From an uncultured Planctomycetia bacterium (GTDB lineage: Bacteria > Planctomycetota > CAYHQZ01), in contig CAYHQZ010000004.1 of the NCBI GenBank assembly GCA_964358555.1, forward strand, positions 1-39,196: DNA of 39,196 bases. The letters are read 5' to 3'. Below are positions 5,134 to 34,729 of this stretch, one piece after another; within the stretch, counting starts at the first letter, position 1; each line of letters opens with the position of its first letter. The translations under genes were made by a program, and so were the position numbers. The notes beneath the pieces were generated by a model that worked only from the letters and a program-made list of their open reading frames with translations, did not search any database and was not told the origin of the DNA.

Positions 5134-5403
5134 CTATCCATGCGAATTCGCGGCGACGTAGGCGTGGAGGACCGCGTTGATCCGCGTCTGGTAGCCGCGA
5201 CCGTGCCGCTTGAACCACCGGATCACATCGGGATCGAGGCGAATGGAGACAACGGACTTCCGCTGGGGCATCCGGACGACCATCTTCGAGAAAACGGCCG
5301 GATCGATGGGCGGGATGTCGGAAAAGTCGATCTCCTCGTCCTTCATCGCTTTGAGCCGATCCCAGTCAGTCCTTGATTTCCCGTGCGTAAATGCGTTCTT
5401 CAT
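5134..5403 (-). CDS. brnA: BrnA-family antitoxin (89 aa)
   Basis: TDWDRLKAMKDEEIDFSDIP...VSIRLDPDVIRWFK..GRGYQTRINAVL is the BrnA pattern. Start reassigned to ATG 5403, overlapping the brnT 3' end. Confidence 0.87.
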   Translation of the reverse strand: MKNAFTHGKSRTDWDRLKAMKDEEIDFSDIPPIDPAVFSKMVVRMPQRKSVVSIRLDPDVIRWFKRHGRGYQTRINAVLHAYVAANSHG

Positions 5404-5644
5404 GCTTGCTCGCCTTTCGGGCTGAAATGATCCGGATGACTTGTTCGGCCGGCTCGGTAAATACCACCACCGCCAGAACATCGCCCAACCACCCGATCCC
5501 CACCCATCGAGTCTCCCTGTAATCTTTCCGACGATCCAGAAAAGTCACCATGGGGTGTTCGAACATGGAGGCGACATCCATGAAATCGATGCCGTGATTC
5601 CGCCGATTGAGCCGGTTCTTGGCCTCGTCCCATTGGAACTCCAC
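5366..5644 (-). CDS. brnT: BrnT-family ribonuclease toxin
   Basis: FQWDEAKNRLN..NHGIDF...DYRETRW.GIG...VVVFTE...IRIISARKA is the BrnT pattern. Confidence 0.9.
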   Translation of the reverse strand: MEFQWDEAKNRLNRRNHGIDFMDVASMFEHPMVTFLDRRKDYRETRWVGIGWLGDVLAVVVFTEPAEQVIRIISARKASKHEERIYAREIKD

Positions 5645-11695: not shown

Positions 11696-11705
11696 GGCGT
11701 GGAGT

Positions 11706-12494
11706 CTACCCTCGATCCGCCGCCGCAGGTTCACGCGCGGCCTCCCCCGGCGAGGGCGCCTCCGGACGCAAGAACCCCTGGACGCGCGGATCCGCGGAGG
11801 CGTCCAGGTCCGCGAACGTCCCGCTCGCCGCCACCTCGCCCGCGACCAGCAGCGTCGCGCGATCGGCGACCCGACGGGCGCTGCCAAGATCGTGCGTCAC
11901 GATCACGAGGGTCACCCGCCAGAGCCTTTTTACCCGCAGGATCAGGGCGTCGAGGCCGGCGGCGGTAACGGGGTCGAGGCCCGCCGTCGGCTCGTCGAGG
12001 AAGAGGATTTCGGGGTCGAGCACGAGGGCGCGCGCGAGGGCGACGCGCTTCTTCATCCCGCCCGAAAGATCCGACGGCATCTTCGAGGCGGCCTCCCGAA
12101 GGCCCACGGCCTCGAGCTTCGCGAGGGCCGTCCGCTCGAGGGCGCGCTCCGGAAGCCCCGGGGCGTGCTCGCGGAGCGGGAAGAGGACGTTCTCCAGGAC
12201 CGAAAGGCTGCCGAAGAGGGCCCCGCCCTGGAAGAGAAGGCCCACCCGGCGCAGGAGCCTCGGGCGATCGGCCTCGGAAAGCGCGTGGATCGGCTCGCCG
12301 AGGATCCGGATCTCCCCCGCCAAGGGCCGAAGGAGCCCCACGAGCATCCGCAGCAGCGTCGTCTTCCCGCAGCCGCTCGTCCCGAGGACCGCGTGGGCTT
12401 CGCCCGCGGGAACTTCGAGATCCACCCCGCGCAGGACCGCGCCGGCCCCGTATCCCCCCGTAACCCCGCGCGCGAAAACCGGCGGGCCGCTCAT
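11706..12494 (-). CDS. mlaF: MlaF-like ABC transporter ATP-binding protein
   Basis: GTSGCGKT, LFQGGALFGSLSVLENV, LSGGMKKRVALARAL, DEPTAGLDP, VTHD. Confidence 0.9.
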   Translation of the reverse strand: MSGPPVFARGVTGGYGAGAVLRGVDLEVPAGEAHAVLGTSGCGKTTLLRMLVGLLRPLAGEIRILGEPIHALSEADRPRLLRRVGLLFQGGALFGSLSVLENVLFPLREHAPGLPERALERTALAKLEAVGLREAASKMPSDLSGGMKKRVALARALVLDPEILFLDEPTAGLDPVTAAGLDALILRVKRLWRVTLVIVTHDLGSARRVADRATLLVAGEVAASGTFADLDASADPRVQGFLRPEAPSPGEAAREPAAADRG

Positions 12495-13626: not shown

Positions 13627-13636
13627 AGTATAGACT
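13627..13636. promoter_or_regulatory. Overlapping divergent -10 elements between mlaE and der
   Basis: AGTATAGACT gives TAGACT on + and TATACT on -, in the centre of a 51-bp GC-rich intergenic gap. Confidence 0.45.
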
Positions 13637-15265: not shown

Positions 15266-15563
15266 GGCCAGACCTGCTTTCGTTGCTTGAGCGTGCGCTC
15301 CCGAAGCGTCCAGAACGCCATGATGATGAACCCATCGTACTTCCCTTCCCGATATACAACAACCATCACTTGCCGGGTTCGTACTGCCGAATCGCCAGGA
15401 GTTCGCCGGCACCCCCCTCCAAGACCCGGTCGGGATTTGCGACGGTTTCGAGCACTTCCAACCGGAGCCCGGCCAGCTCGCAATGCTCCTCGGTGATGTG
15501 CAACCATCGCTCGTCGGTCAGTCGGATGGTCAGGCCGGCGCGGGAAACGACTGTAACGTTCAC
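15262..15563 (-). pseudogene. Frameshifted small toxin-like gene (DUF4258/RelE-like partner of DUF2283)
   Basis: IRLTDERWLHITEEHCELAG...EPGK-TGA continues in a shifted frame as MVVVYRE..DGFIIMAFWT...KQVWP. Adding one base near 15367 (AAG TG ATG to AAG TGG ATG) gives a continuous ORF of about 100 aa coupled at both ends. Confidence 0.7.
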
Positions 15564-18181
15564 GGCGCCGGCTCCTCGAACCGGGCCCTCTCCTTCGCGT
15601 ACCAGTCCTCGATATCCTTCGCCCAGACCTCGCGATGCGACTCGGGTTTCGCCGGATCGAACGGGAAGTCCCGCCGCAGGACCGATTCCAGCGCCCGGTG
15701 CGCCCACTCGCGGCGGGCGGGCTCGCCCGTCCGCAGCTCGGCCGCAAGGACGGAGACGACCCGGTCCGGATGGAACTGCGCCAGGGCCGCCGCAACCCTT
15801 CGCCGGACGTAGGCGTCCTTGTCGCCGAGGGCCTCCAGCAGCGGCGAAACGGCCTCGGGGTCCTCGAGGCGGCCCAGCGCGCCGGCCGCCTCCGCCCGGG
15901 CGAGCCAGTGAGAATCCCGGAGGACCGGACGGACGTCCGCCGGATCCGCCCCGATCCTCCCCGCAACGAAACAGGCGCAGGCCCGCACGATCGGATCGCC
16001 GGACTTGAGGGCGGCCGGGAGGATCTCCTTCGCCGCCGCCGGCTCCAGCCGCAGCAGCCCGAACGCCCCGCGCCGGCGGGTCGGGAGGTCGTCGGATGCG
16101 ATCTCGGCGGGCGGGTCCGTGGAGTCCGGAATCGCGTTCCCGATCTCCTCGAGGATGTCCCTCGCGTCTCCCCGGATCCCGGCCTCCGGCTCGGCCGCCC
16201 CCGCCACCCGCGCGCCCACGAGACCGATGGCGGCCTCCCCGCCGCGCCTGCGCAAGAGTCCCAGCGTCCGGCGGCGCAGTCGTGCGTCCGGCGAGGCGAC
16301 GGCCTCGGACAAGGGCTTTCCCACGGCCTCCCACGACATCGCGACGAGGGACTCCTCCGCCATGTCGAGGATCAGGAAGTCCGTCTCGAGCACGTTCGGG
16401 ACGAGGACGCGAACGCCGGCCTCGCCCTGGGCCTCGATCGCGCGCAAGGCCTTCCGCCGGACGATCCGGTCGGGATCCCGCAGGGCGCGCTCGAGCCTCG
16501 GCAGCGACGCCGGCCGCTTCAGCGCTCGCAGATCGTCGGCGACGATCCGGCGCACGCCCGGATCCTCGTCCCGGAGCGCCACCGAGAGCGGTTCCTCGGC
16601 GCGGGGGTCGAGGATCTGGCCGAGGACGGCGGCGGCATTGCGCCGGACGGCCGTCCGCGCGTCCCGCATGGCGAGCAGCACGCACGGGATCGCCTTCGCC
16701 TCGACCGATTCGGCCTTGGAGCCCGCCAGGATCGCCTCCATCTTCACGTCGTCGAAGGTGTCCTTCGTGGCGTCGAGCCGGGGCTTTTCGTCGATCATCT
16801 CGAGGGCGAGGGAAATCCGGTTGCGGCGGGGCAGATCGGCTTCGGCCCGCAGCGTCGATACGAGTTCGGGAATCGCGACCGGCCCGATCCCGGCCAGCGC
16901 GAGCGCGGCGTTCCGCCGGACCTCGCCGTCCGCATCCGCGAGCGCCTTCACGAGGGCCGGGATCGCGGATTCGTCCCGGAAGGCGCCGGCCGCCCGGACA
17001 GCGGCGGCCCGGACCTTGGGATCGACGTCGCCTATCAGCGGCCGGACGTCGGGGGCCGCCTTCTTCGCCTTCGCGGCGATAAGGATCCGAACGGCCGAGC
17101 CCCGGACGATCGGATCCTTGTCCTTCAGGCATCCGACGAGGGCGGAAACAAGCGAAAGGTCCGGCATCCGGGCCAGCGACTCCAGCGCCACGATCCGAAG
17201 CGCCAGGTCGTCCGCCTTGAGCGCCTCGGCGAGATCGCCCCTCGCCTCCTCCGCCCCAAGGACCCCGAGGCCGGCCGCGGCGAGCCTGCGCGCGTAGGGC
17301 TTCCCCTTCCGGAGCATCTCGCGAAGCCCCGGAACGTCCCGCGCGGCCTTCATCCGCTCCACGAGCGCGATGAGCGCCGCCTCCTCGCCCTGCAGGCCCC
17401 CGCGATCCCCCGCCGGAATCCCCAGCCGATCGAGGATCTTCTCGATCCGCCGCTTCACGGACGCGTCCGGCAACGTGGCCAGTTCCGAGATGAGCAGCGC
17501 CGCCTGCCCCTTCCCCGACGCCACGATCGCGTCCGACGCGGCCGCGCAGACGGCCTCGTCCGTCCCCTGCAGCCCCTTGAGCAGCCCGGGCAGGACCCGC
17601 GGGCCCCCGATCCCGGAGAGGCCCTTCACCGCCGCGAGCCGGACGGAGGCGTCCGCGTCGGAGACCGCGCGCTCCAGATCGGGAATCCGGTCGGCGCCGA
17701 AACGCGCAAGCCTCTCCACCGCGGAGCGCCGGATCCGGGGCGAGGCATCCGACGCCCAAGCCTTCGCGATCTCAAGAATCCGTTCGGGCGCCAGCGCGTC
17801 CAGCGCGGCGAAGGCCGCCAGCCTTCGAGCGTCCGTCTCCCCCGGAGCGGCCTTCGAGGCGAGGAAATCGATCGAAGATGGCCCGCGGTCCCGGAGTGCC
17901 GCCAGCGTGTCCTCCCCCGGCTTCAAGGCATAGGCCGAGAACGCCCGGCGGATCTGGATGCCCTCCCAGTTCGCAACCACGAAATACCCGCCCGCCCCGA
18001 GCACCGCCAGGAGGATGCCAAGGATGACCAGCCGTTTGCCCCGCCTGCCCGGAACCGCGGCAGGCCGCTTCGCCTTTTCCTTCCCCCCCGCCCCCTCGCC
18101 CGGCCGCGCGCCCCCGGAAGGTCTCCCCGGATCCGGCTTCGGCCCCGGCTTCGGTGCGGGCCTGAAAGGAGGCTTTTGCAT
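15560..18181 (-). CDS. Membrane-anchored HEAT-repeat (PBS lyase-like) protein
   Basis: Pro/Lys-rich N-tail, one TM (LVILGILLAVLGAGGYFVVA), then many L.D.D..VR..A..AL repeats. Confidence 0.87.
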   Translation of the reverse strand: MQKPPFRPAPKPGPKPDPGRPSGGARPGEGAGGKEKAKRPAAVPGRRGKRLVILGILLAVLGAGGYFVVANWEGIQIRRAFSAYALKPGEDTLAALRDRGPSSIDFLASKAAPGETDARRLAAFAALDALAPERILEIAKAWASDASPRIRRSAVERLARFGADRIPDLERAVSDADASVRLAAVKGLSGIGGPRVLPGLLKGLQGTDEAVCAAASDAIVASGKGQAALLISELATLPDASVKRRIEKILDRLGIPAGDRGGLQGEEAALIALVERMKAARDVPGLREMLRKGKPYARRLAAAGLGVLGAEEARGDLAEALKADDLALRIVALESLARMPDLSLVSALVGCLKDKDPIVRGSAVRILIAAKAKKAAPDVRPLIGDVDPKVRAAAVRAAGAFRDESAIPALVKALADADGEVRRNAALALAGIGPVAIPELVSTLRAEADLPRRNRISLALEMIDEKPRLDATKDTFDDVKMEAILAGSKAESVEAKAIPCVLLAMRDARTAVRRNAAAVLGQILDPRAEEPLSVALRDEDPGVRRIVADDLRALKRPASLPRLERALRDPDRIVRRKALRAIEAQGEAGVRVLVPNVLETDFLILDMAEESLVAMSWEAVGKPLSEAVASPDARLRRRTLGLLRRRGGEAAIGLVGARVAGAAEPEAGIRGDARDILEEIGNAIPDSTDPPAEIASDDLPTRRRGAFGLLRLEPAAAKEILPAALKSGDPIVRACACFVAGRIGADPADVRPVLRDSHWLARAEAAGALGRLEDPEAVSPLLEALGDKDAYVRRRVAAALAQFHPDRVVSVLAAELRTGEPARREWAHRALESVLRRDFPFDPAKPESHREVWAKDIEDWYAKERARFEEPAP

Positions 18182-18204
18182 CGTGATGCCGGAAGTCTAC
18201 CGCC

Positions 18205-19992
18205 TCACGCCGCGGGCAGGCGGAGGACGAACGCGACGCCGCCGGGGGTCGTGGACTCGAGGCGCAGCTCTCCCCCCATCGCCCGGGCGAGCCGCCAGGA
18301 AAGCGCGAGGCCCAATCCCACGCCGGGGGCGGATTCGGCGGCCTCGCGGGCGGACTTGGAGAACGGCGTGAAGAGGCGGCGGACCTGCTCGGGCGGCAGG
18401 CCCGGCCCGTGGTCCCGCACGCGGATGATCGCGCCCCGGCCGGCCCGCTCCGCCTCCAGATGCAATCGCCGGTCGGAGGCGCCCGCGGCGTACTTGCAGG
18501 CGTTGTCCACGAGGTTGAAGAGGATCTGGTCCACCGCGCCGGGGTCCGCCCGGACGTCGAGCGCCTCCGAAGGCACGCCGGAAATCTCGAGGGAGAAGCC
18601 GGCGGGGGCGGCCCGCGCCGCGAGGCGCTCGCGGCAGCCCGACACGAGGGCGTCGAGGCCGACGACCCTTGCGCGATCGCCCAGGCGGCCGCGCTCCAGC
18701 CTCGCGTAGGCCAGGACGTTCTCGACGAGGGCCGAGAGGCGGTTGGACTCCGACTGCAGGGTGGAGAGATACTCCGCCCGGCGCTCCTCGGGCACCATCC
18801 CGAGGGAGAGCATCTCGGAATACATCCGGAAGGTGGTGAGCGGCGTGCGCAACTCGTGGGTCACGGCCGACACGAACGCCCCCCGGCGCTCCGAGAGCGA
18901 AACGGCCCCGTGGAGCAATGCCGCGACGGCCGCCCCCGCCAGCAGGATCCCGGCCCACGCGGCGCCGAGGACGATCCGGAGCGGCGAGGGGGGAAGCGGC
19001 GGCGTCGGAACCTCGCCCGACTCGAGCCGGACGGGGAGCGACGCGAGCCTCCGGCCCGGCTCCGACGACGGCCCGGGCGAGGCCGCGACGAGTTTAGCGG
19101 CGGGCAGGAGGTCGCGCACCTCGTCCAGGAGAGCGCGCCGGATCGCCTCCCAGTCGAGCCAGCAGCCCTGGATGACGCTCCCCTTCCCCCGGGAAATCCG
19201 GCGGGCGAGGACGAGCGTTCGATCGATCCAGAGAGGCTGGAGGCCGGCGCCCTCGTTCGGCGCCGCGAACGCCTGATCGGGATCGTTCAGGATGAGATTG
19301 TCCCCCGAGGAGGCGACCTTGACCCGGCCCGCCCGGCTGCCGAACTCCCGGCTGCTCTGCACGTCCTGGTGCTGCGCCGCCTGCTCCCGCTGGACCTTCG
19401 CCAGGCCCGGCCCGAACGCCTCCTGGGGGTTCGGATCCGGCGGCGCCAGGAGCGCCAGGCCCCGCGTCGGGGGATCGGCCTTGCTCATGTAGGCTTCCAA
19501 CGCGATCGGCTGGACGAGCCGGCGGAATTCCGCCAGCCGTGCGTCCGCTTCCGAAATCCTGCCGGCGCCGAGGATCCGCTCGGCGAGGGCGCGCTCGGAC
19601 TCGACAGGGGATTGCGGGGAGGCGATCCGGTCCTTAGGCCCGGCCTCGAAATGGAGCCGGACGAACGGGGATCGGAACGAAAGAAGCGGCGAGGCCGACA
19701 CCACCGCCCCCGGCGCAAGGGGCGAAAGGGATTTCCCGAAGGCCCGCTCGATGCGCGGGAAGGACGCATACTCCGCCGGGGGCCGGCCGCTCTCCTGGGC
19801 CAAGAGCGGCGCGAGGACCGATTCCATCCGCCACAGCGCGAGGCGCACGGATTCCTCGGCGTCCGCGCGCCTTCGTACCGCGCGCTCGGCCGCATCCAGC
19901 CGAAGTGCCGCGAGACTCAACCACCCCATGGCCGCGAGCCCCACGGCCAGGCACGCCCCGAACGCAAGCCACGTCTTCCAGGGCCGGTTCAC
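18205..19992 (-). CDS. Sensor histidine kinase (HisKA + HATPase)
   Basis: Two TM segments, H-box FVSAVTHELRTPLT, N-box NLVDNACKY, DHGPG, GVGLGLA. Confidence 0.93.
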   Translation of the reverse strand: MNRPWKTWLAFGACLAVGLAAMGWLSLAALRLDAAERAVRRRADAEESVRLALWRMESVLAPLLAQESGRPPAEYASFPRIERAFGKSLSPLAPGAVVSASPLLSFRSPFVRLHFEAGPKDRIASPQSPVESERALAERILGAGRISEADARLAEFRRLVQPIALEAYMSKADPPTRGLALLAPPDPNPQEAFGPGLAKVQREQAAQHQDVQSSREFGSRAGRVKVASSGDNLILNDPDQAFAAPNEGAGLQPLWIDRTLVLARRISRGKGSVIQGCWLDWEAIRRALLDEVRDLLPAAKLVAASPGPSSEPGRRLASLPVRLESGEVPTPPLPPSPLRIVLGAAWAGILLAGAAVAALLHGAVSLSERRGAFVSAVTHELRTPLTTFRMYSEMLSLGMVPEERRAEYLSTLQSESNRLSALVENVLAYARLERGRLGDRARVVGLDALVSGCRERLAARAAPAGFSLEISGVPSEALDVRADPGAVDQILFNLVDNACKYAAGASDRRLHLEAERAGRGAIIRVRDHGPGLPPEQVRRLFTPFSKSAREAAESAPGVGLGLALSWRLARAMGGELRLESTTPGGVAFVLRLPAA

Positions 19993-20696
19993 GTGGAGGG
20001 TCCTGATGCCGCCAGGCGGTAGCCCTTGCCGCGCGCCGTCTCGATCACGCGCGGGTGATCCGGATCGTCGCGGAGCTTTTCCCGAAGGCGCGCGATGTGC
20101 ATGTCGATCGTCCGCGTCTCGACGCCGGACGGCTCGATGCGCCAGACGCGGGCGAGGATCTCGTCGCGGGAGATGACGCGCCCGGGATTGGCCGCGAGGT
20201 GGCGCAGGAGGGCCGATTCCCGCTCGGAGAGATCCTCGCGCGTGCCGTCCTCGAACCGGACTTCCGACCGGGCGAGATCCGCGAACCCGCCGGGGACGTC
20301 GATCCGAGAAACGTCCGTGGGGCGCTCGGGGGAGCGGCGCAGGACCGCCTCGACCCGCGCGAGAAGCTCTTTCGCGCTGAAGGGCTTCACGACGTAGTCG
20401 TCGGCGCCTTCCTTCAGGCCCGCGACGCGATCGCCCTCGGCGCCGCGCGCCGTCAGGATGATCACGGGCAGCGTCGGGCGGGTGCGCCGGACCTCGCGCA
20501 GGATCTCCATCCCGTCGGCGCCGGGCAGCAAAAGATCGAGCAGCACGAGGTCGCAGTCCGCCTGGACCGCGATCCGTTTCCCCTCGTCGCCTCGGGCCGC
20601 GGAAAGGGTTTCGTAGCCGGCGAACCGCAGGGCATCCAGGACGCCCCGCCGGATCGCCGCGTCGTCCTCCACCACGAGGATTCGCCGGGCGGGCAT
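19989..20696 (-). CDS. OmpR/PhoB-family response regulator
   Basis: ILVVEDD, LLDLLLPGADG, LTA, GADDYVVKPF, RTIDMHIARLREKL, TARGKGY. SD GGAGG precedes ATG 20696. Confidence 0.95.
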   Translation of the reverse strand: MPARRILVVEDDAAIRRGVLDALRFAGYETLSAARGDEGKRIAVQADCDLVLLDLLLPGADGMEILREVRRTRPTLPVIILTARGAEGDRVAGLKEGADDYVVKPFSAKELLARVEAVLRRSPERPTDVSRIDVPGGFADLARSEVRFEDGTREDLSERESALLRHLAANPGRVISRDEILARVWRIEPSGVETRTIDMHIARLREKLRDDPDHPRVIETARGKGYRLAASGPST

Positions 20697-20754
20697 GGTG
20701 TTCTCCTCCCGCGGCAGTCTACCCCGCCGCGCCCGGCGACGGATGCGCGGCCGG

Positions 20755-20782: not shown

Positions 20783-23263
20783 TTACGGGGCGCCCTTCTT
20801 CCAATCCACGGACATGATCTTCCGGATCTCCGATGGTGCCAGGCCCCGGGCGCCGGGCACGTGGGAGGCGGGGGCGCCGGCAGGAACGAAGGCAGCCGGA
20901 TCCGCGTGGCAGGACTCGCAGGCGCGAGCCTCCTTGCGGATGGCGTGGGACGAGAGCGGCATCCAGCCCGAAGGCGGCGGGACGGGGGGAACGACGAGCG
21001 GCGCCGGGACGCCCTCCGGCGGGGCCCGCGGGGCGGGAATCATCGGCGAGAGGCGGCCGGCGGAGGTCCATCCGAGAAGCGGCCGGCCCGATTCGAGGAC
21101 CTTCGGCGCGAGGACCCAGCGCCAGGGCGTCGTCTCGCCGTCCTGGAAGTTCCACTGCCCCCGGGCGTCGTCGGGGCCCGAGATGGCGGCGGGGCGGTCG
21201 GGATCGGTCCCGAAGAGGCGGAGCGTCGGAATCGGCGCGTCTCGCGTCCGGGAATCGGCGGCGTGACAGGCGATGCACTCCAGCCGCTCCATGTGGGCCG
21301 CCACCCGATGCGCGGCCTGGGCGCTGGAGGCGTCCGGAATCCGCCGCGCCCGGCCCCCGTCCGATGGCTTGAAAAACCAGGCCCCGTGGCGCCGGTCCAG
21401 CACGATCCCTCGGGGCGGCTGGGGCGCCCGGGTCGGCGTCGCGTGGCAGGAGACGCACCGGACGGACGTGTCCGGGCCCGCCCGAAGCGCGACCCGCCCG
21501 CCGCCGTGAACGTCGGTCCCCCGGTGGCAGTCGGCGCACTCCATCCCCCGCTCCCGGTGCACGCCGGGGGCGGAAGGCTCCCAGAACCGGCCGAACCGCC
21601 GCATCGCCCCCGGAATCCGGGCGTCGGTCTCCTGGCGCTCGACGAGCCCCTCGAAGCCGGGCCCGACGCTCCAGGCGCAGTGGTGGCAGGCGAGGCAGGC
21701 CGCGCTCGCGGGCTTGCGAACGATCGAATGGCGCTCCGGGCGGACCCGGAAGACCCGGTCGAGGTGGCCGTTCGCCTCGTCGGATTCCTCCGGCGGCAGC
21801 GTGGGATCGCCCCCCTTGTGCCCGCCGGACGGCGAAACGGACAGGTGGCAGGCCGCGCAGCCCCCCAGCCGGTGGCCGCCCCGGGCGGTGGATTCCATGC
21901 TGACGGTCCGCCCGCCGCCGCGGATCCGCGTGTCAATCCACAGATGGCAGGACGAGCAATTCTTCGCGGCGTAGTCGAGGGTCCGCCCCTCGTAGGTCAG
22001 CAGATCCCTCCGCGGATCCCCCTTCGGCGGGAAAGGGGCGAGGCGAACGGACCCGTCGGCGGCCTCCGCCGGCTGCGCGCCGAACAAGGCGGCATCCTTC
22101 GGGGCGGACGGCGAGAAGCGACGGACGGAGGCCATGACCCCTGCGGCGGTGGCGTGGGTGGACAGGAGCGAGCGCGCCGCGATTTCCTTGTGGCACTCCC
22201 CGCATGTCTCGCGCGCGACGGGGAAATCCGCGGGGCGCACGACGAGGCCGTCGTGGGCCTGGAACTGGGCGTCCAGGAACGCCGGCTCCGCGAGCATCAC
22301 GCGCGCCCAGCGATCGGCCCAGTCGGCGTCCATCCGCCGGACGATCTCGCGCATCTCGTCGATCGGAAGGTCGTCGGGCAGCGGCTGGAACCGGCCGTCT
22401 TTCCCGCGCATGGCGTAGCGGGGGTCGTCCTCCTCGAGGGCCCGCTGGAGTTCGGAGGCGGCCCGGCGGCGCTCGACGAGGCCCGGCAGGCCTCCGGCGA
22501 ACCGCGCCTCCCACGCGCCGAGGACGCGCGCGAAGGCCTCGAAGGATTTCCCGCGCGAGCGCTGGGCGTCGAGGAACATCCGCTGGAACGCGAGGATGTT
22601 CGCGTCCGCGCCCTCCTCGGCCTTCGCCCGCAAATCGGGCATCGAGCCGGTCCGGATGGGCTCGAGGAAGCGGCGCCGATCCTGCGCGAGGGCGTTGCGC
22701 GCGAAATCCTCGAGCGACAGCCCCGGGATGTCGCGCGCGAGCGCCGCCGAAAGATCCTCGAACGCCCGCCGGCGATCCTCGGGGGTCCGGGGGCCGCCGG
22801 GCGGCTGGTTCGCAAGGCGCTGGAGGGCGGCGCGGAACCGGATGCAGCGACCGCCGGTCGCCGGATCGAGGTCCAGCAGGAACTTCAGCATCGTCAGGGC
22901 CTCGAGGTCGACCCCCTCCGGAAGCCTCGATGCGATCTGCGTCCGCTCCCGGAGCGCCTCGAACCAATCCCGCCACGCCCGGACGCGCATCCGGGCCGCC
23001 CCCTCCGGAACGAGCGTCCGGCGCTCGCGCAGGTAGGCGGCCGCATCGCCCGCGAAGGCGAACTCGGGACGGCCCCGGTGGCAGTCGGCGCAGGCCGGCG
23101 TCCCCTTCGCGGGGCGATGACTCGGCTCGATCCCGGCGTGGCAGGAAAGGCAGCCTGCGTCGCGGGACGCGGCCGGGACCGGCGCGCGCTCGCCCCCGGG
23201 GGGCGGGGACGGGGCGGCGGCCGCGAGGAAGAGCGCGGCGGCGGCCGTCCGGAGGCGCCTCAC
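20783..23263 (-). CDS. Decaheme cytochrome c (826 aa) with a large helical insertion
   Basis: GTG start 23263 overlaps the upstream stop, followed by a signal-peptide-like N-terminus. 10 CxxCH: CLSCH, CADCH, CGECH, CSSCH, CAACH, CLACH, CADCH, CVSCH, CIACH, CESCH. Confidence 0.85.
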   Translation of the reverse strand: MRRLRTAAAALFLAAAAPSPPPGGERAPVPAASRDAGCLSCHAGIEPSHRPAKGTPACADCHRGRPEFAFAGDAAAYLRERRTLVPEGAARMRVRAWRDWFEALRERTQIASRLPEGVDLEALTMLKFLLDLDPATGGRCIRFRAALQRLANQPPGGPRTPEDRRRAFEDLSAALARDIPGLSLEDFARNALAQDRRRFLEPIRTGSMPDLRAKAEEGADANILAFQRMFLDAQRSRGKSFEAFARVLGAWEARFAGGLPGLVERRRAASELQRALEEDDPRYAMRGKDGRFQPLPDDLPIDEMREIVRRMDADWADRWARVMLAEPAFLDAQFQAHDGLVVRPADFPVARETCGECHKEIAARSLLSTHATAAGVMASVRRFSPSAPKDAALFGAQPAEAADGSVRLAPFPPKGDPRRDLLTYEGRTLDYAAKNCSSCHLWIDTRIRGGGRTVSMESTARGGHRLGGCAACHLSVSPSGGHKGGDPTLPPEESDEANGHLDRVFRVRPERHSIVRKPASAACLACHHCAWSVGPGFEGLVERQETDARIPGAMRRFGRFWEPSAPGVHRERGMECADCHRGTDVHGGGRVALRAGPDTSVRCVSCHATPTRAPQPPRGIVLDRRHGAWFFKPSDGGRARRIPDASSAQAAHRVAAHMERLECIACHAADSRTRDAPIPTLRLFGTDPDRPAAISGPDDARGQWNFQDGETTPWRWVLAPKVLESGRPLLGWTSAGRLSPMIPAPRAPPEGVPAPLVVPPVPPPSGWMPLSSHAIRKEARACESCHADPAAFVPAGAPASHVPGARGLAPSEIRKIMSVDWKKGAP

Positions 23264-25683
23264 GGCCCCGCCTTCCCTTCGGCGGCCGGGAGTTCGCGCG
23301 AGGACTCGAAGATCACCGTATCCAGCGGATCGGCGGGGTCCTCCTCGAGGCCGAGGGCGCGGAACGCGTCGAGGGGAAGGCGGCGGCGGACGCCCTTCAG
23401 GGCGAGGCGGACGGGCCCCGGCGGGGCCTGGAAGGAGAACCGAAGCGTTCGTTGCGCGCCGGCCGCCAGCCGCTCGTCCTCGCCGCCGGCTGCGACCGCC
23501 TGCCAGGGCCAGACCACGCCGCCCTCGCCTTTCGTCCCGGCGAGGCGGCGCTCGAAGAGGACCCCCGCCTCGAGCGCCCACTCCCCCTTCTCGAAACGGT
23601 TCGCCGCCCCGCCGCTCGCCGTCCCCGCGGCGGATCCGAGCGCCGGCCCCGATGATAGCGGAATCGGCCGGCCGTCGGCGCCGACCGCCCGCAGCGCGAA
23701 GATCACCTGGCGGAGGGGGAACCCGGAGGGGACCGCGTGTCCCGTCTTGTCGTTCTTGATCGTGACCTCGACGGAGATCTCCGCGCCCGCGCGCTCTGCC
23801 TTCCAGTCCACGGCAAGACCCGGCAGCAATCCGGGACCGGCGAACCGGTGGGAATGGTTCGGCGGGCGCGGGAACCGGGGCATGCAGCGGTAGATGATCG
23901 ACGTCGGCGGCCCCTCGACCGGCGGCAGGTGGCACTCCTGGCAGGTGCGCGACGCGGGGCCGGGCTTCGCGAAGTCCGAGGCCTTCCAGGCGTCGTAGGT
24001 GTCGTCGAGGACGAGGCCGTCGTCTCGCTTCTCCTGATGGCAGCCGGCGCAAAGCAGGCTGTCCTTGAACAGCGGGTTGTAGGAGGCCCCCATCCAGGGG
24101 AACGTCGCGTCCTGGAGCGGGCTCATCGTGAGCTTCACCCTTCCTGGCGGATCCTTGCCGGCGGAGCCCGGCCGGACGACCTTGAGCGATCCGAGAAGCC
24201 CCGACCGGTCCGGGTCGGAAACATCGTCGATCTTGTGGCAGAAGTCGCAGTGGTTGCCGTCGGCCGAGGAGGGGATTTTCTTCAGGTCGGCCGGCGCCCA
24301 GGACGCCTCCCCGCCCTCCCACCGGGCGGGCTTCCCGCCCTCCGCCGGCGCCGCGGCCGCCGTCTCGATCGCGGCGGCGGGCACGTGGCAGACGGCGCAC
24401 GCGGCGCTGCCCGGCGAGGCCCTCCCGGCGGCGCGGTCCTTCCGGAACAGGCCCTCGTCGAGCCGCCGCACCCAGGCGTTCGCCGAGGCGCGCGCGTGGC
24501 GGGACTGGTTCCACTCGCCGTATCGCTCGGTGTGGCAGTAGCCGCAGCGGAAGTTCGTGATGCCGTCCCCCCGAGGGTCCTCGTGGTAGGGAATCGGATG
24601 CGGGGAGATGAAGGTATAGGCCTTCTGATCCCGCCGGACGGGCCGAAGCAGCAATTCGGCCTTCTCCGTGTCGGCGGGCAGCAGCGGCAAGACGTCGGTG
24701 TAGTAGCCCTTCTTCGCGGCGCAGAGCAGGAAGAGGTCCGCGTAGCGGCCATCGGGCGAGGGCAAATCGAACGAGAACGCCCCGCCCTTCCCGCTTTTTG
24801 CGAGCAGCCCCTGCGGACCCTTGAGCCGGATGTCCGCGCCCTCGACGCCCGCGCCCTCCGCGTCCCGGACGAATCCCCGGAACCGCAGGGGCGTCCGGAC
24901 GGGCTTGGGCAGCCGCCAGGAGAAGCGGGCCGTCTCGAGGAGCGAATTCCGGATCCGATCCTGGGTCTTGTGGAACGCCGGGTCGTTGGCCTCCTTGAGG
25001 CCCGCCACGCGGATCCCGATGTCCGTGTAGATGTCCGGGTAGTGGATGAACATCATCCCGTCGCTCCGGAGAAGATCCACGTGGTAGACGTGGAAATACC
25101 GGAACAGGAAGTGGTCGCGCTTGGGCACGTCGGCGGGGATCGCGTTCCAGGGATCGTCCTTCGAGACGAACCGCAGGATCGCCCAGCCCTCCGAGCACGG
25201 CGAGTTCGAGATCTGGAGGGTCCGGGGGTCCGGGGATCGATCCGCCACGAACAGCTTCTGCCCGCCGCGCTTCTCGTCCTTCTGCCAGAGGATGTCGGGG
25301 TTGAGGCAGCCCCAGTAGAGGATGACCTCGCGGCCCCGCGGGGCCCCCCAGCCGGTCCCCTCCCAGCGCGTCCCGTCGACGTCGTATCCGGTGGACTGGC
25401 GCAGGAACGTGCGGCCGCCCGCGCCGGCTTCGAGTTGGATCCGCATCTGGGCGACCGCCAGGGACACCGTCCACTGGCCGGTCGGATTGAAGGGCGGAAC
25501 GGTCCGCAGGTCCGGCATCGGGGCGGGCGGGACGGCGGGCGCCGCGGGCGCGCCGGGCGGCGGCGGCGGCGCCGGGGGCGTCGGGGAATGGCCGCGCAAC
25601 GCGTCGAACACGGGCGCGGCCGCCCCCAGCCCGAAGAGGACGGCGAAGACCGCCGCGAGCCGGACGGAACGGAAGCGGCTCAT
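23260..25683 (-). CDS. Pentaheme cytochrome c (c554-like) with a carboxypeptidase-regulatory-like domain and an unknown N-terminal domain (807 aa)
   Basis: ATG 25683 (ATGA overlap), signal peptide, Pro-rich linker, G.VRDAEG.GVEGADI beta-sandwich motif. Hemes: CGYCH..YGEWNQSRHA, CAVCH, CDFCH, CAGCH, CQECH. C-terminal GHAVPSG..LRQV. Confidence 0.85.
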   Translation of the reverse strand: MSRFRSVRLAAVFAVLFGLGAAAPVFDALRGHSPTPPAPPPPPGAPAAPAVPPAPMPDLRTVPPFNPTGQWTVSLAVAQMRIQLEAGAGGRTFLRQSTGYDVDGTRWEGTGWGAPRGREVILYWGCLNPDILWQKDEKRGGQKLFVADRSPDPRTLQISNSPCSEGWAILRFVSKDDPWNAIPADVPKRDHFLFRYFHVYHVDLLRSDGMMFIHYPDIYTDIGIRVAGLKEANDPAFHKTQDRIRNSLLETARFSWRLPKPVRTPLRFRGFVRDAEGAGVEGADIRLKGPQGLLAKSGKGGAFSFDLPSPDGRYADLFLLCAAKKGYYTDVLPLLPADTEKAELLLRPVRRDQKAYTFISPHPIPYHEDPRGDGITNFRCGYCHTERYGEWNQSRHARASANAWVRRLDEGLFRKDRAAGRASPGSAACAVCHVPAAAIETAAAAPAEGGKPARWEGGEASWAPADLKKIPSSADGNHCDFCHKIDDVSDPDRSGLLGSLKVVRPGSAGKDPPGRVKLTMSPLQDATFPWMGASYNPLFKDSLLCAGCHQEKRDDGLVLDDTYDAWKASDFAKPGPASRTCQECHLPPVEGPPTSIIYRCMPRFPRPPNHSHRFAGPGLLPGLAVDWKAERAGAEISVEVTIKNDKTGHAVPSGFPLRQVIFALRAVGADGRPIPLSSGPALGSAAGTASGGAANRFEKGEWALEAGVLFERRLAGTKGEGGVVWPWQAVAAGGEDERLAAGAQRTLRFSFQAPPGPVRLALKGVRRRLPLDAFRALGLEEDPADPLDTVIFESSRELPAAEGKAGP

Positions 25684-28001
25684 GCCTTCTTCCTCCGCCG
25701 GCGGCCGACCACCAAGACGAGCCCGAGGACGGCGCAGGACGCGATCAGGGCGAAGACGACCTCGCTCGGAGCGTCCCGCGCGGTCCGGACCTTCAGCAGA
25801 TTTGAAATCTCGGCGGCGTTGAGGGGCCGCGCGCCCTCGACCCAGGATTCGGCGGCGGGCTCGTATCCCTGCGGGCCGCGCCGGACGAACGCGTCGAGGT
25901 CCACGAACGTCTTCTCCTGGGCGCCGGCGGCGCGCAGCGCCCCCGAGGCGATCCCGGCGGCGGCCGGATTGCCGTGGCAGGAACCGCAGGCGCGGGCCTG
26001 GCGGCGGATCCCGTGGGGCGTGAACGGCCGAAACGAGCGCGGACGCCCGGAGGCCGATCGCAGCGAAGCGCCCTGCTCCGCCGCGTTTCCGTCCCGATCG
26101 ATCCGGGTCAGCCGAATCTCGGGCCCGGGCCGGATGGGCGAGATCCGCCCGCGCGCGTTCACGCCGAGGGACGGCGCGCCTTGGATCTCCCGGATGGTTT
26201 CGGTCAGGATCCGCCCCGGCTTCAGCGGCCAGACGCCGCGGGCGGGGATCTCGAGTAGGTCTTGGGTCAGCCGGAAGGGGACGTGGTCCAGGCGCCACCT
26301 GAATCGGCTCTTCTCCAGGAGCGTTGCGTCCGGGCCGTAATCCTCGAGCACGCGCAGGCCGTAGGCGAGGGAGGCTTCGGGGGCGTGGCAGGCGTAGCAC
26401 TCGAGGCGCTCGTGGCGGGCGATCCGGTGGGCCTCGGGCCCGGCGGCAGCGCCGCGCCGCTCGGAGGGCAGCGGGATGGTCTTTTCCGATCCCGCCCACG
26501 TTTTCAGCCTCCAGCCCACGGGCTTCTTCGAAAGGCCGGGGAACGGCCGGCCCTTAGCGTCGTTGCCGTCGGGCCCCTGCGCAAGCGTCCCGTGGCAGGT
26601 CTCGCAGCGGACGGAAACGCCGTCGCCCGCGTGCCGCCCGATGGTGCCGTCGCCGTGGAGATCGCTTCCCCGGTGGCAGTCGATGCAGGACATCCCCTTC
26701 TCGAAATGGACGCTGGGCGGGGTCTCGGCCCAGGCGGAGCCGTAGATCCGCCGGAATGCCGGCGCCTCCGGAAGCACCTGCGAGGCCGGGGCCGCGCGGA
26801 CGCGGCCGACGAAATCGGGGCCCACGCCGAACGGGCAGTGATGGCAGGCGAGGCAGGCGTCGGTCCGGACCTTCGTCACGATCCGGTGCCGGCGGGGATG
26901 GACCGTGAACGCCTCCGTCAGCGACCGCTCGCGATCGCGAAGCGCGGTCCGGAGGAGCCGCGCGACGGGGTCGGTGTTGGCGAATCGCCCCTCGGGGGTC
27001 CGCGCCTGGATCGTCTCGAGGGAGGAAACCCGCTCATGCCAGGGCACGGTCTCGTCGCCGGATTCCGCCAGGCCCGTCTCGTGGTACTCGAAATGACAGG
27101 CGGCGCAGCCCGCGCCGCGGGCGGTCCCGAAGGGCATCTGGAAATAGGACGGGTCCCCGGGCGGAAGCGGAGGCGAAGGCGCCGGATTCCGGCGCTCGAA
27201 CTCCGCGCGCTCCGCGGGCGCAAGCGGCTTGCCCCGGCGGGCCTCCTCGGCCCGGACCCGCCGCTCCATCTGCTCCCGCTCGCCGCGCTCCCGGATTCCC
27301 CGGTAATACTCGTGGGCGGCGCCGTCGACGGAAAACCCCGCGTGGCAGGAGAGGCACTCGAGACGGAGGAGCGCGTCGGGGCCGCCCTCCGGGATCCGGG
27401 CCGCGGCGAGGGATTCCAGCGCGCGGGCGGGGCGATCCTTCGGGGTGTTCTCCTCGCGAATCGGGAAGGGAAGGGCGGAGGCGGGCGCCAGATTCTCGCC
27501 GCGCGCGCCGTAGGCGTGCCGGACCCCCCGGATGACGCCGGCGGCCGTCGCGTGGAGCGACCGGAGGTGGTTGGCCACGACCTGGCCGTGGGCGTGGCAG
27601 GCCCCGCAGGTCGTCTTCACCACCGACGGATCCCCGGGGTCGCGGATAAGTTCGCGGTGCGCCGAATCGATCGCCGGGCGAAGGACGCCCTGCAACTCCC
27701 GCTCGGCCGCGACGCGCCGGCTGCTAAAGAGCGTCTTTGAATTGAAATCCCGGGCCTCGAGGAGCGCTTTCTCGATTTCCTGGACCCTGGCACGGAGTTC
27801 GAGAACCGCCGAAGGCAGGCCGGCGGCGGGATCGCCGCGGTGGCAGGAGACGCAGGAGGGATGCGAGGGATGCCCGCCTGGATTCGCGTCCACCGCGTCC
27901 AGGCCCTTGTGGCATTCGAGGCAGCCCTCGGGCTTTGCGGAGGGAGCCGCCGCGGCGGCAAGGATCCCGGCGAAAATCGGCAAAGCAGCGGCCAGGCGCA
28001 T
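25680..28001 (-). CDS. Decaheme cytochrome c with C-terminal membrane anchor (773 aa)
   Basis: Signal peptide and 10 CxxCH: CLECH, CVSCH, CGACH, CLSCH, CAACH, CLACH, CIDCH, CETCH, CYACH, CGSCH. Ends with a TM helix followed by RRRRKK. Confidence 0.88.
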   Translation of the reverse strand: MRLAAALPIFAGILAAAAAPSAKPEGCLECHKGLDAVDANPGGHPSHPSCVSCHRGDPAAGLPSAVLELRARVQEIEKALLEARDFNSKTLFSSRRVAAERELQGVLRPAIDSAHRELIRDPGDPSVVKTTCGACHAHGQVVANHLRSLHATAAGVIRGVRHAYGARGENLAPASALPFPIREENTPKDRPARALESLAAARIPEGGPDALLRLECLSCHAGFSVDGAAHEYYRGIRERGEREQMERRVRAEEARRGKPLAPAERAEFERRNPAPSPPLPPGDPSYFQMPFGTARGAGCAACHFEYHETGLAESGDETVPWHERVSSLETIQARTPEGRFANTDPVARLLRTALRDRERSLTEAFTVHPRRHRIVTKVRTDACLACHHCPFGVGPDFVGRVRAAPASQVLPEAPAFRRIYGSAWAETPPSVHFEKGMSCIDCHRGSDLHGDGTIGRHAGDGVSVRCETCHGTLAQGPDGNDAKGRPFPGLSKKPVGWRLKTWAGSEKTIPLPSERRGAAAGPEAHRIARHERLECYACHAPEASLAYGLRVLEDYGPDATLLEKSRFRWRLDHVPFRLTQDLLEIPARGVWPLKPGRILTETIREIQGAPSLGVNARGRISPIRPGPEIRLTRIDRDGNAAEQGASLRSASGRPRSFRPFTPHGIRRQARACGSCHGNPAAAGIASGALRAAGAQEKTFVDLDAFVRRGPQGYEPAAESWVEGARPLNAAEISNLLKVRTARDAPSEVVFALIASCAVLGLVLVVGRRRRKKA

Positions 28002-28051
28002 GTTCCCCCGTAGTCTAGACCCCGCATACGGGAATGGGTTACGGTTCTTCC

Positions 28052-30247: not shown

Positions 30248-30257
30248 CAAGCGGAGT

Positions 30258-31217
30258 CTACCCCGCCGCCTCGACGAGGGCGTCGGCGAGCCGGATGAGT
30301 TCGCCCTCGCGGACAATCCGCCCGCTCCCGACGGGCCACTCGCCGTGCACGCGCTCGCGCCAGCCGGCCGGAATGGAAAATCTTCCGTAGGCCGCGCCCG
30401 CAAACGCGCCGGCCATCGTGGAGGCGGTGTCGGCGTCGTTGCCGAGGTTGCCGACCTTCACGATCGCCTCCGTGAACGACAAGGACGTCCGGAAGCCCCA
30501 GACGGCGCTTTCGATCGTGTGGCGGACCCAGCCGGTGTTCGGGAAGTCCGACGGCTGACGGGTCGAGGCCTTCTCGATCGCCTCGCGAAGTTCCGACGGC
30601 AGGTCGGAAACGTCGGAAAGCCCCGCGTCCACCGCCTCGGCGGGGCTGTCCCCCTGGAGGGCATGCCACAGGACCGATCCCGCGAACGTGCAGGCCGCGT
30701 CACATTCGGGGTGCGCGTGGGTCACGCGCCCCTGGAGCCGGCAGGCCTCGAGACAGGCCGAAAGATTCCCGGCGTTCGCCAGGACCGCCGGGACGACGCG
30801 CATGACGGAGCCGTTGCCCGCCCAGGCGGGGCTGTCCTGGTGGACGGACTCGGCCGCGATCCTCCAGTCCTCGCCCTTGGCGATCCGCGAGAGGACCTTC
30901 GCGGTGTGCAGGCCCATGTCGGGCGGCCGCGATCGGAACCAGTCCGCGAAGCGCTTCGCGATCTCGTCGGGGTCCAACGGATTCTTCGCGAGGATCCCGT
31001 CGGCGAGCGCAAGCGTCATCTCGGTATCGTCCGTGAAGTGCCCGGCCGGCAGGCGCCCCGGCTCGAAGTCGTCCACGGGCCGGTCGTAGGTGCGCGGGGC
31101 GGCGAACTCGAGCGGCATCCCGAAGGCGTCGCCCACCGCCGCGCCCACCAGGCATCCCCGGGCGCGATCGAGGAGGCTCCCCGGCAGCGGCTCGGCGTCC
31201 TCGCGTTTCCCTTTCAT
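30258..31217 (-). CDS. ADP-ribosylglycohydrolase (DraG/ARH family)
   Basis: GAAVGDAFGMPLEF, FTDDTEM, AGNGSVMR, THAHP, GNDADT. Purine-rich SD before ATG 31217. Confidence 0.9.
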   Translation of the reverse strand: MKGKREDAEPLPGSLLDRARGCLVGAAVGDAFGMPLEFAAPRTYDRPVDDFEPGRLPAGHFTDDTEMTLALADGILAKNPLDPDEIAKRFADWFRSRPPDMGLHTAKVLSRIAKGEDWRIAAESVHQDSPAWAGNGSVMRVVPAVLANAGNLSACLEACRLQGRVTHAHPECDAACTFAGSVLWHALQGDSPAEAVDAGLSDVSDLPSELREAIEKASTRQPSDFPNTGWVRHTIESAVWGFRTSLSFTEAIVKVGNLGNDADTASTMAGAFAGAAYGRFSIPAGWRERVHGEWPVGSGRIVREGELIRLADALVEAAG

Positions 31218-34327: not shown

Positions 34328-34729
34328 CTAAATCCAGATCACGTCCACCTCGCCCTCGACTTCCTTGAATTCCTTGTCCCCCGTCACGAGGGAAGCCTTG
34401 CGGGCCTTCGCTAGGGCGGCGGCGAAGCAGTCGGCGTAGGCCATTTTTCGGGTTGCCTTCAGTTCGGCGGCCATTTTCGCGAGCGGCCGGTCCGCATCCA
34501 CGATCTCGATGGGAAGCGTCTCGAGGATGCGGATCATTCGCTCCCCGACCTCGCGCCCGCCGGTGCGAACGGCGTTGTAGTAAACCTCGCCCCAGTTGAC
34601 GACCGAGAGGAGGAGGGGATGGTCACGATCCTTCGCTTGCTTCACCAGTTCTGCGACCTTGGCCCCTCCGGGTTCGTCCTCCAAGAAGGCGATGACGGCG
34701 AAGGAATCGAGGACCTTCTGCGCGCTCAT
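34328..34729 (-). CDS. vapC: VapC-family PIN-domain toxin
   Basis: VLDSFAVIAFLEDEPG, SVVNWGEVYY, MAYADCFAAALA, LVTGDKEF. Confidence 0.92.
   Translation of the reverse strand: MSAQKVLDSFAVIAFLEDEPGGAKVAELVKQAKDRDHPLLLSVVNWGEVYYNAVRTGGREVGERMIRILETLPIEIVDADRPLAKMAAELKATRKMAYADCFAAALAKARKASLVTGDKEFKEVEGEVDVIWI

Follow-up and report, generated by a model that had tools for sequence, protein, structure and literature searches.

Three consecutive genes on the minus strand of a contig from an uncultured Planctomycetia bacterium (GenBank assembly GCA_964358555.1, contig CAYHQZ010000004.1; the whole stretch of 39,196 nucleotides is here denoted the window) encode multihaem c-type cytochromes. The original prediction regarded these genes, denoted g1, g2 and g3 in 5' to 3' order, as an uncharacterised membrane-tethered redox enzyme or relay, which raises the question whether the trio is a new system or a form of a known one, and what it might do. 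We found that the trio is a variant of a known pairing, that of the ExtM family with the PHC family of pentahaem cytochromes, altered by a lineage-specific duplication, haem losses, added domains and loss of a Cys/Sec site. As to function, we favour, with about even confidence, a periplasmic, membrane-tethered multihaem electron-transfer module of the ExtM plus PHC type, in which g2 would be the terminal subunit and electrons would be supplied in trans by a quinol module.

Two ExtM-like decahaem cytochromes flank a pentahaem cytochrome

The assembly comprises 4.1 Mb, is 85.6% complete, and the sequence has 72% GC. Gene calls and CxxCH counts gave three genes with 10, 5 and 10 haem motifs, as the original prediction had it, joined by the two 4-nt overlaps on which the claim of translational coupling was based: ATGA between the g1 stop and the g2 start (sequence GCATGAGC) and GTGA between the g2 stop and the g3 start (sequence CCGTGAGG), each with a GGAGG-like site 5' of it. 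Among the 34,106 six-frame open reading frames (ORFs) of at least 60 amino acids in the whole assembly, nine contain three or more CxxCH motifs, and three of the nine are g1, g2 and g3, indicating that the cluster is not a chance pattern of GC-rich sequence. Hydropathy agreed with the further claim of three exported proteins, one of them tethered to the membrane: g1 and g3 each begin with a signal, hydrophobic in g1, and of these two only g1 ends in a helix (aa 744-768), to which the tail RRRRKKA is attached. In g2, a single hydrophobic stretch at the N-terminus (aa 4-30) leads into a Pro-rich linker.

The two decahaem proteins are paralogues with the same motif order, as had been noticed, aligning with 30% identity (E 1e-47) and with all ten haem motifs in the same columns. 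They had also been said to recall Geobacter Ext cytochromes, and the NCBIfam ExtM model (NF040943) indeed matched g1 with 157.6 bits (E 3.9e-46) and g3 with 82.8 bits (E 1.7e-23), neither reaching the equivalog cut-off of 800 bits; Pfam recognised generic c3/c7 modules only. ExtM has twelve c-type haem motifs (PMC5877670). Both g1 and g3 keep the haem-motif order of the ExtM-like superfamily and all of the conserved candidate distal His residues (H115, H372, H432, H530 and H663), and in both, haem columns 10 and 12 are empty, all twelve motifs being present in 30 of 62 aligned rows. On sequence comparison, g1 and g3 are sister paralogues and divergent members of the 12-haem ExtM-like family. 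A quick maximum-likelihood tree, in which long branches and deviating amino-acid composition make the deep placement provisional, joined g1 and g3 as sisters (SH-aLRT 99) and placed them, together with one further relative (P0020), as sister (93) to, not within, a clade (100) of Geomonas, Trichloromonas and Desulfuromonas ExtM. The 10-haem genes of other lineages fall in the other half of the tree, indicating that haem loss was convergent.

Residues per haem number 77 in g1, 161 in g2 and 83 in g3, and low haem density had been described as more typical of catalytic multihaems. For the decahaems, the alignment attributes it instead to lineage-specific inserts, chiefly one of 270 aa in g3, and to the loss of two of twelve haems. 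The g3 insert is rich in Ala, Arg, Leu, Asp and Glu and faces gaps in the other 12 family rows, with a partial match to the shorter insert of g1; the g1 inserts, at the same site, consist of a helical hairpin and Glu/Arg-rich stretches. The catalytic multihaem families NrfA, HAO and OTR gave sub-threshold local matches only (PF02335, 22.0 bits against 24.1; PDB NrfA entries at E 0.19 and 0.77). The AlphaFold2 (AF2) model of g1 has a predicted local distance difference test score (pLDDT) of 77. Searched against PDB with Foldseek, this haem-free 773-residue model had no matches at E<=0.001, which is not proof of a new fold, and a wide search with VIA gave a match confined to the helical hairpin at aa 57-117; neither fold search of the haem-free model returned a multihaem protein. 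A porin-cytochrome conduit of the MtrAB/Pcc type is not apparent: the DmsE/MtrA model scored 9.3 and 19.7 bits against a cut-off of 192, and the 25 other window ORFs scanned had no match to porin, cytochrome b, NrfD or NapC/NrfH-type families, in line with the claim that the operon has neither a porin nor a quinol-oxidising subunit.

Two distal-ligand columns alternate between His and Met in the family (Met in 49 rows and His in 13; His in 33 and Met in 27), and both positions are His in g1 and g3. Because bis-His ligation generally makes the potential of a haem lower, the haems of g1 and g3 are probably of low potential, which would place the two proteins on a reductive branch. At haem 6, both carry an extra His and Cys directly after CxxCH. 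Of the 62 aligned family rows, just the two of g1 and g3 have the resulting CLACHHC motif; among 110 ExtM-like ORFs of the fetched loci it was found only in g1's own ORF, at a locus (L001) that ends before the motif of g3. The extra residues may provide an axial ligand or a redox-active thiol.

The pentahaem protein g2

Following its linker, g2 divides into an orphan beta-rich domain, a transthyretin-like domain and a pentahaem core that closes with an Ig-like beta-sandwich. An exhaustive HMMER search found relatives of g2 in 995 representative clusters at E<=1e-3. A profile built from 60 of them matched Thermochromatium tepidum cytochrome c552 (5ze8) at E 8.4e-36 and MccSep (9wt8) at E 5.8e-18. 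The AF2 model of g2 (pLDDT 77.9 overall, about 90 over aa 260-800) matched 5ze8 with Foldseek (E 1.2e-16, TM-score 0.69 by target) and with VIA (Z 26.9, rmsd 3.0 A, 338 of 385 residues). With five CxxCH motifs in order, an Ig-like C-terminal domain and a full-length structural match, g2 is assigned by sequence profile and model to the fold family of T. tepidum c552, outside the MccSep enzyme family. PMC11976967 calls this pentahaem fold family the PHC family. The middle protein had originally been called c554-like. The Pfam family behind this label (PF13435) scored 21.9 bits against a cut-off of 20.8 and covered only profile positions 2-62 of 84, and PDB c554 (1bvb) was matched at E 3.5e-6 over two haems against 8.4e-36 for 5ze8; we therefore replaced the label by c552/ExtKL-like.

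Within the same family, MccSep (ExtKL) is described, in its preprint (10.1101/2025.11.18.688581), as a homotetrameric periplasmic polysulfide reductase with a His/Cys239-ligated haem 2 and an essential Sec325 in the Ig-like domain; most activity is gone in its C239H, U325A and U325C variants. In g2, Phe655 (within GHAVPSGFP) stands at the position of Sec325 in the D-G-U-P loop, a column in which V, F, T, S, I and H are the commonest residues of the 60 relatives, Cys not being among these six. MccSep Cys239 aligns to Leu559, and the stretch from the haem-4 to the haem-5 motif is free of Cys in g2 and in all 59 of its aligned relatives. Lacking both the haem-ligating Cys and the Sec/Cys, g2 would be incapable of MccSep chemistry. 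The NCBIfam ExtKL model (NF040886) scored 39 bits on g2 (E 3.7e-10) against a cut-off of 250.

The region in front of the core sets g2 apart from most of its relatives. Among the best 150 of the 995, the N-terminal 260 residues are covered by a single protein (P0005, 61% identity), all others starting from about residue 260. The orphan domain was not found in 400 other genomes of the phylum, and an Atlas structure search with it gave no usable match (TM-score <=0.37). The following segment, aa 264-350, matched the CarboxypepD_reg family PF13620 at E 5.1e-4, under the cut-off, and resembled by VIA the SusC NTE domain 9hfj (Z 9.3) and 2nsm (Z 9.0); a literature search found no paper joining carboxypeptidase regulatory-like domains with multiheme proteins. 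We also noticed that Leu586 directly follows the haem-5 CxxCH of g2, a position that is Met in 58 of the 60 relatives, in MccSep and in 5ze8.

Gene order, redox partners and direction of electron flow

A pattern scan of one genome per species yielded at least 600 candidate stretches and at least 546 confirmed relatives, and gene order was surveyed at the best 80 loci; the scan of named loci used a 7-row alignment. The protein homologue searches covered proteins of 0.55-1.75 times the query length among 8000 candidates, a range that lies above short g1 or g3 fragments, such as any on the 4993-bp contig that encodes P0005. These 80 ExtM-like loci are spread over many phyla and share at most 30% identity with g1. 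At four of them (L043, L044, L048 and L067), the ExtM-like gene is immediately preceded by a PHC gene; all four are Geobacter-type ext clusters and fall in the ExtM clade that is sister to g1/g3. ExtKL is distant from g2 (41-64 bits, against 376-531 bits for 24 full or near-full closer relatives), yet the pairing recurs in the sister clade, indicating that it is ancestral or was acquired twice; in both cases this family-level pattern would point to a working partnership. In a second groundwater study, contigs of about 88-92% identity span the junctions g1/g2, g3/regulator and g1/upstream; matching contigs in a sediment data set measure only 151-320 bp, too short to indicate a habitat, and none of the sequencing runs listed was of RNA. 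The trio is real and stable in a narrow lineage, and its arrangement is unique among the searched sequences. A literature search found no description of it; the supplementary homologue lists of the MccSep preprint, which lay beyond that search, might list relatives of g2.

Two adjacent ExtM-like genes were seen at 15 of the 80 loci (L022, L027, L028, L033, L034, L036, L045, L057, L058, L062, L071, L074, L076, L079 and L081), in metagenome-assembled genomes (MAGs) of Nitrospinota, Thermodesulfobacteriota and Calditrichota, and at none of the 15 does a PHC gene lie between them. Both members were aligned for six of the pairs; in each of these, the first gene has 11 motifs, the second is without haems 10 and 12, and the two belong to different old clades. 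To our knowledge, this two-paralogue ExtM-like module is undescribed. ExtM-like genes occur in 94 of 400 other sampled genomes of the phylum, the best scoring 385 bits against 724 for g1 itself; ExtM-like ORFs of at least 980 aa at the named loci are from Planctomycetota MAGs in 16 of 17 cases, this long architecture dominates the phylum sample, and two protein matches bear the name of that phylum, all of which would fit a planctomycete as the host of the trio.

Membrane partners of ExtM-like proteins are recognisable at other loci and elsewhere in the genome. A cytochrome b gene accompanies ExtM-like genes at 11 of the 80 loci and a Rieske gene at 9, monohaem cytochromes c occur there too, and one ExtM-like relative (P0023) is fused to cytochrome b. 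A 3.3-kb contig of the genome, cut at both ends (C111; L121:673-3122), carries an operon of a Rieske gene and the N-terminal and C-terminal parts of cytochrome b, which is a candidate for the most obvious missing partner. The genome also encodes two NrfD-type genes, NrfA, NrfH, DsrJ and DsrP. On another contig (C98:6832-11522; loci L114, L119 and L123) we found dsrA (534.6 bits, above cut-off), in whose match a TAA is the ordinary stop codon of the gene, and dsrB; beside them is a 684-aa protein with an NrfD/HmcC-like membrane domain and a C-terminal domain, in an ORF with six CxxCH motifs. No aprA was found in the 85.6%-complete assembly.

In the mechanism that we propose, the 10-haem wires would be g1, which its C-terminal helix would hold on the cytoplasmic membrane, and g3, the soluble paralogue; g2 would be the terminal subunit, taking up electrons at haem 1 and likely reacting at haem 2. 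Electrons would run from menaquinol through a quinol-oxidising module encoded elsewhere to the decahaems, on to g2 and finally to a periplasmic acceptor, which we guess to be a small inorganic compound of sulfur, selenium or nitrogen. The quinol-oxidising module could be the Rieske/cytochrome b operon, the NrfD-hexahaem fusion or NrfH.

Several observations weigh against this reading. No PHC gene is adjacent at 76 of the 80 named ExtM-like loci, nor at any of 29 same-phylum ExtM-like loci within 1.5-kb flanks, and the 25 loci fetched for the nearest PHC relatives that were retrievable (28-35% identity) had no ExtM-like neighbour. The neighbours of these 25 relatives include no recurrent partner, the largest clusters spanning four loci (those annotated being gamma-glutamyltranspeptidase, a RACo-like protein and a sigma-54 regulator), and give no functional hint. 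The trio is thus not co-conserved at depth. The original prediction had named lack of co-conservation, alongside lack of predicted interfaces, as what would speak against a dedicated complex; the former holds beyond close relatives, and a complex prediction of g1 aa 24-745 with g2 aa 365-640 scored 0.07 against a mark of 0.32, which counts neither way. A complex of g1, g2 and g3 is putative, the donor is a guess because the 39-kb contig has no quinol-oxidising gene, and the direction of flow would follow from ligand types alone. By sequence conservation, at least one haem of g2, whose catalytic role is unproven, is without a universally conserved distal His. Finally, c552, the solved relative closest to g2, has no assigned function according to the discussion in PMC11976967.

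A bolder form of the proposed module, which we consider improbable, would be a new periplasmic respiratory enzyme in a DsrAB-bearing groundwater bacterium, made of a Sec/Cys-independent c552-type pentahaem with a reactive haem 2, drawn from the large uncharacterised subfamily of 995 clusters, and two decahaems that each gained a CxxCHHC site, with sulfur or selenium reductase chemistry unlike that of MccSep; here the CxxCHHC haem would possibly be His/Cys-ligated or thiol-active.

Flow in the opposite direction, with g2 or the CxxCHHC haems oxidising sulfide, polysulfide, thiosulfate or Fe(II) and the decahaems carrying electrons to the membrane, also appears unlikely. The genome has dsrAB, DsrJ and DsrP, with which some lineages oxidise sulfur, and T. 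tepidum, the source of the solved structure nearest to g2, is a purple sulfur bacterium. Cytochromes that oxidise sulfur typically have His/Cys-type haems, according to the discussion of 10.1101/2025.11.18.688581, and g1 and g3 have the extra Cys at haem 6. However, their His residues at both His/Met columns point to low potentials, the sole g2-family member of tested function is a reductase, and the window ORFs scanned include no oxidase or reaction-centre gene.

Instead of a periplasmic enzyme, the trio could also be a device that transfers electrons at the cell surface or outside the cell, such as one that reduces minerals or a filament-forming cytochrome. This would suit the anchor and Pro-rich stalk of g2 and its transthyretin-like domain, found likewise at the N-terminus of SusC/TonB-dependent receptors; ExtKL was first named for extracellular electron transfer (PMC5877670), and the PHC fold is reported to be related to archaeal cytochrome nanowires (PMC11976967). 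We think such a device quite unlikely, since the contig has no porin or outer-membrane partner, the assembly has nine ORFs with three or more CxxCH motifs, unlike typical metal reducers, and the C-terminal helix and positive tail of g1 point to the cytoplasmic membrane. That g2 is a working MccSep-type polysulfide or selenite reductase and the operon a reduced ext cluster is very improbable, for the shared fold family, the same order of five haems, the location beside ExtM-like genes as in Geobacter and the dissimilatory sulfur genes of the genome agree with it, but Phe655, the Cys-free region between the haem-4 and haem-5 motifs, the largely inactive C239H, U325A and U325C variants of MccSep and the low ExtKL score do not.

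Downstream of the trio, as had been predicted, lies a two-component system on the same strand (Table 1). The kinase has a sensor region of about 310 aa without family match between two predicted membrane helices, and the regulator-kinase pair would probably control expression of the trio, from a separate promoter. Apart from the trio, this pair and the HEAT-repeat gene that follows it, the contig is housekeeping: the remaining genes include an alpha-2-macroglobulin, an MqnC-like radical-SAM enzyme, GreA, a glycosyltransferase, Mla transporter parts, Der, an SDR, an MFS transporter, GlgE and toxin-antitoxin genes.

The hexamer TAGACT has six copies in the window against 1.95 expected, a number reached in 2 of 100 shuffles. 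All six are on the coding strand, close to or just 5' of gene starts, and it lies 10-22 nt 5' of the ATG of g1, the response regulator, the HEAT-repeat gene and Der. In this organism, TAGACT may serve as the -10 box of promoters with short leaders or none. Our reading of its positions is that the trio would form one short-leader transcription unit and that the regulator and the HEAT-repeat gene would have their own promoters, three in all. A scan for consensus promoters and terminators was uninformative, with no promoters and 7 terminator-like sites against 5.3 expected.

Table 1. Positions of genes, protein regions and sequence motifs in the window (nt, nucleotides; aa, amino acids)
Feature	Position	Strand	Description
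g1	28001..25680	minus	773 aa, 10 CxxCH, ExtM-like decahaem c-type cytochrome
g1, C-terminal helix	25698-25772	minus	aa 744-768
g1, CLACHHC	26835..26855	minus	haem 6; extra His and Cys directly after CxxCH
g2	25683..23260	minus	807 aa, 5 CxxCH, pentahaem cytochrome
g2, orphan domain	24898..25431	minus	aa 85-262, beta-rich, N-terminal
g2, transthyretin-like domain	24634..24894	minus	aa 264-350, CarboxypepD_reg
g2, core	23290..24624	minus	aa 354-798, pentahaem c552/PHC core and C-terminal Ig-like beta-sandwich
g2, Leu586	23926-23928	minus	directly after haem-5 CxxCH
g3	23263..20783	minus	826 aa, 10 CxxCH, ExtM-like decahaem c-type cytochrome
g3, insert	22259..23068	minus	aa 66-335, 270 aa between haems 2 and 3
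g3, CLACHHC	21677..21697	minus	haem 6; extra His and Cys directly after CxxCH
OmpR-type response regulator	20696..19989	minus	235 aa; PF00072 and PF00486; 86 nt 3' of g3 stop
Histidine kinase	19992..18205	minus	595 aa; PF00512 and PF02518; GTG start overlaps regulator stop (GTGA)
HEAT/PBS-lyase-repeat protein	15560-18181	minus	873 aa; N-terminal hydrophobic segment; directly 3' of kinase
TAGACT, g1	28012-28017	minus	candidate -10 box, 10 nt 5' of g1 ATG
TAGACT, response regulator	20716-20721	minus	5' of response regulator
TAGACT, HEAT gene	18194-18199	minus	5' of HEAT gene
TAGACT, other copy	13631-13636	plus	
TAGACT, other copy	11703-11708	minus	
TAGACT, other copy	30255-30260	minus	
Alpha-2-macroglobulin-like protein	1-4992	plus	1,600-1,663 aa, extends past contig start
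BrnA-type antitoxin	5134-5481	minus	
PIN-domain protein	34328-34729	minus	

Comparison with known systems

Only recently was MccSep/ExtKL recognised as the polysulfide reductase of Geobacter, an enzyme that still awaits assignment of an electron donor. That ExtM-type cytochromes flank a pentahaem with its fold in an unrelated lineage supports the view of ExtM-family proteins as redox partners of this pentahaem family, and the trio offers a compact three-gene system for testing the ExtM/PHC partnership. A large PHC subfamily is without the Cys/Sec site, and therefore its chemistry is not transferable from MccSep; 'selenite/tellurite reduction' labels drawn from weak ExtM or ExtKL matches would be wrong for the trio genes.

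The tandem and Rieske/cytochrome b-linked ExtM-like genes of Nitrospinota, Thermodesulfobacteriota and anammox Planctomycetota MAGs belong to the same family as g1 and g3. Like the trio, the tandem loci have two paralogues each, and in six pairs the downstream member is also without haems 10 and 12. Their members, however, are directly adjacent with no pentahaem between them and are drawn from two old clades, in contrast to the young sister pair of g1 and g3, and many tandem or ExtM-like loci carry cytochrome b or Rieske genes, which the contig of the trio does not.

The low-potential pentahaem c552 of T. tepidum is the best match of g2 aa 354-798 in both structure and sequence, sharing the five haems and the Ig-like C-terminal domain at 23% identity. 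It has a Cys in the haem-4/haem-5 loop, unlike g2 and the 59 aligned relatives, and g2 adds the anchor, the linker, the orphan domain and the transthyretin-like domain. MccSep belongs to the same pentahaem family, and the GHxxPxG loop of its Ig-like domain is conserved in g2; its Sec325 and Cys239, however, correspond to Phe655 and Leu559, the latter in a loop without Cys.

The closest arrangement is extKL-extM of Geobacter sulfurreducens (GSU2937-2936 and GSU2935). The trio differs from it in having two ExtM-like paralogues that flank the pentahaem, with 10 haems and not 12; in having no match near it to ExtH/I/J, ExtN, ExtO (Rieske), ExtP (cytochrome b), ExtQ or ExtS; in a g2 that is without the Sec and the haem-ligating Cys and has two extra N-terminal domains; and in scores far under the ExtM and ExtKL equivalog cut-offs given above. 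Common to both is an exported PHC-fold pentahaem cytochrome encoded directly beside an ExtM-family multihaem cytochrome.

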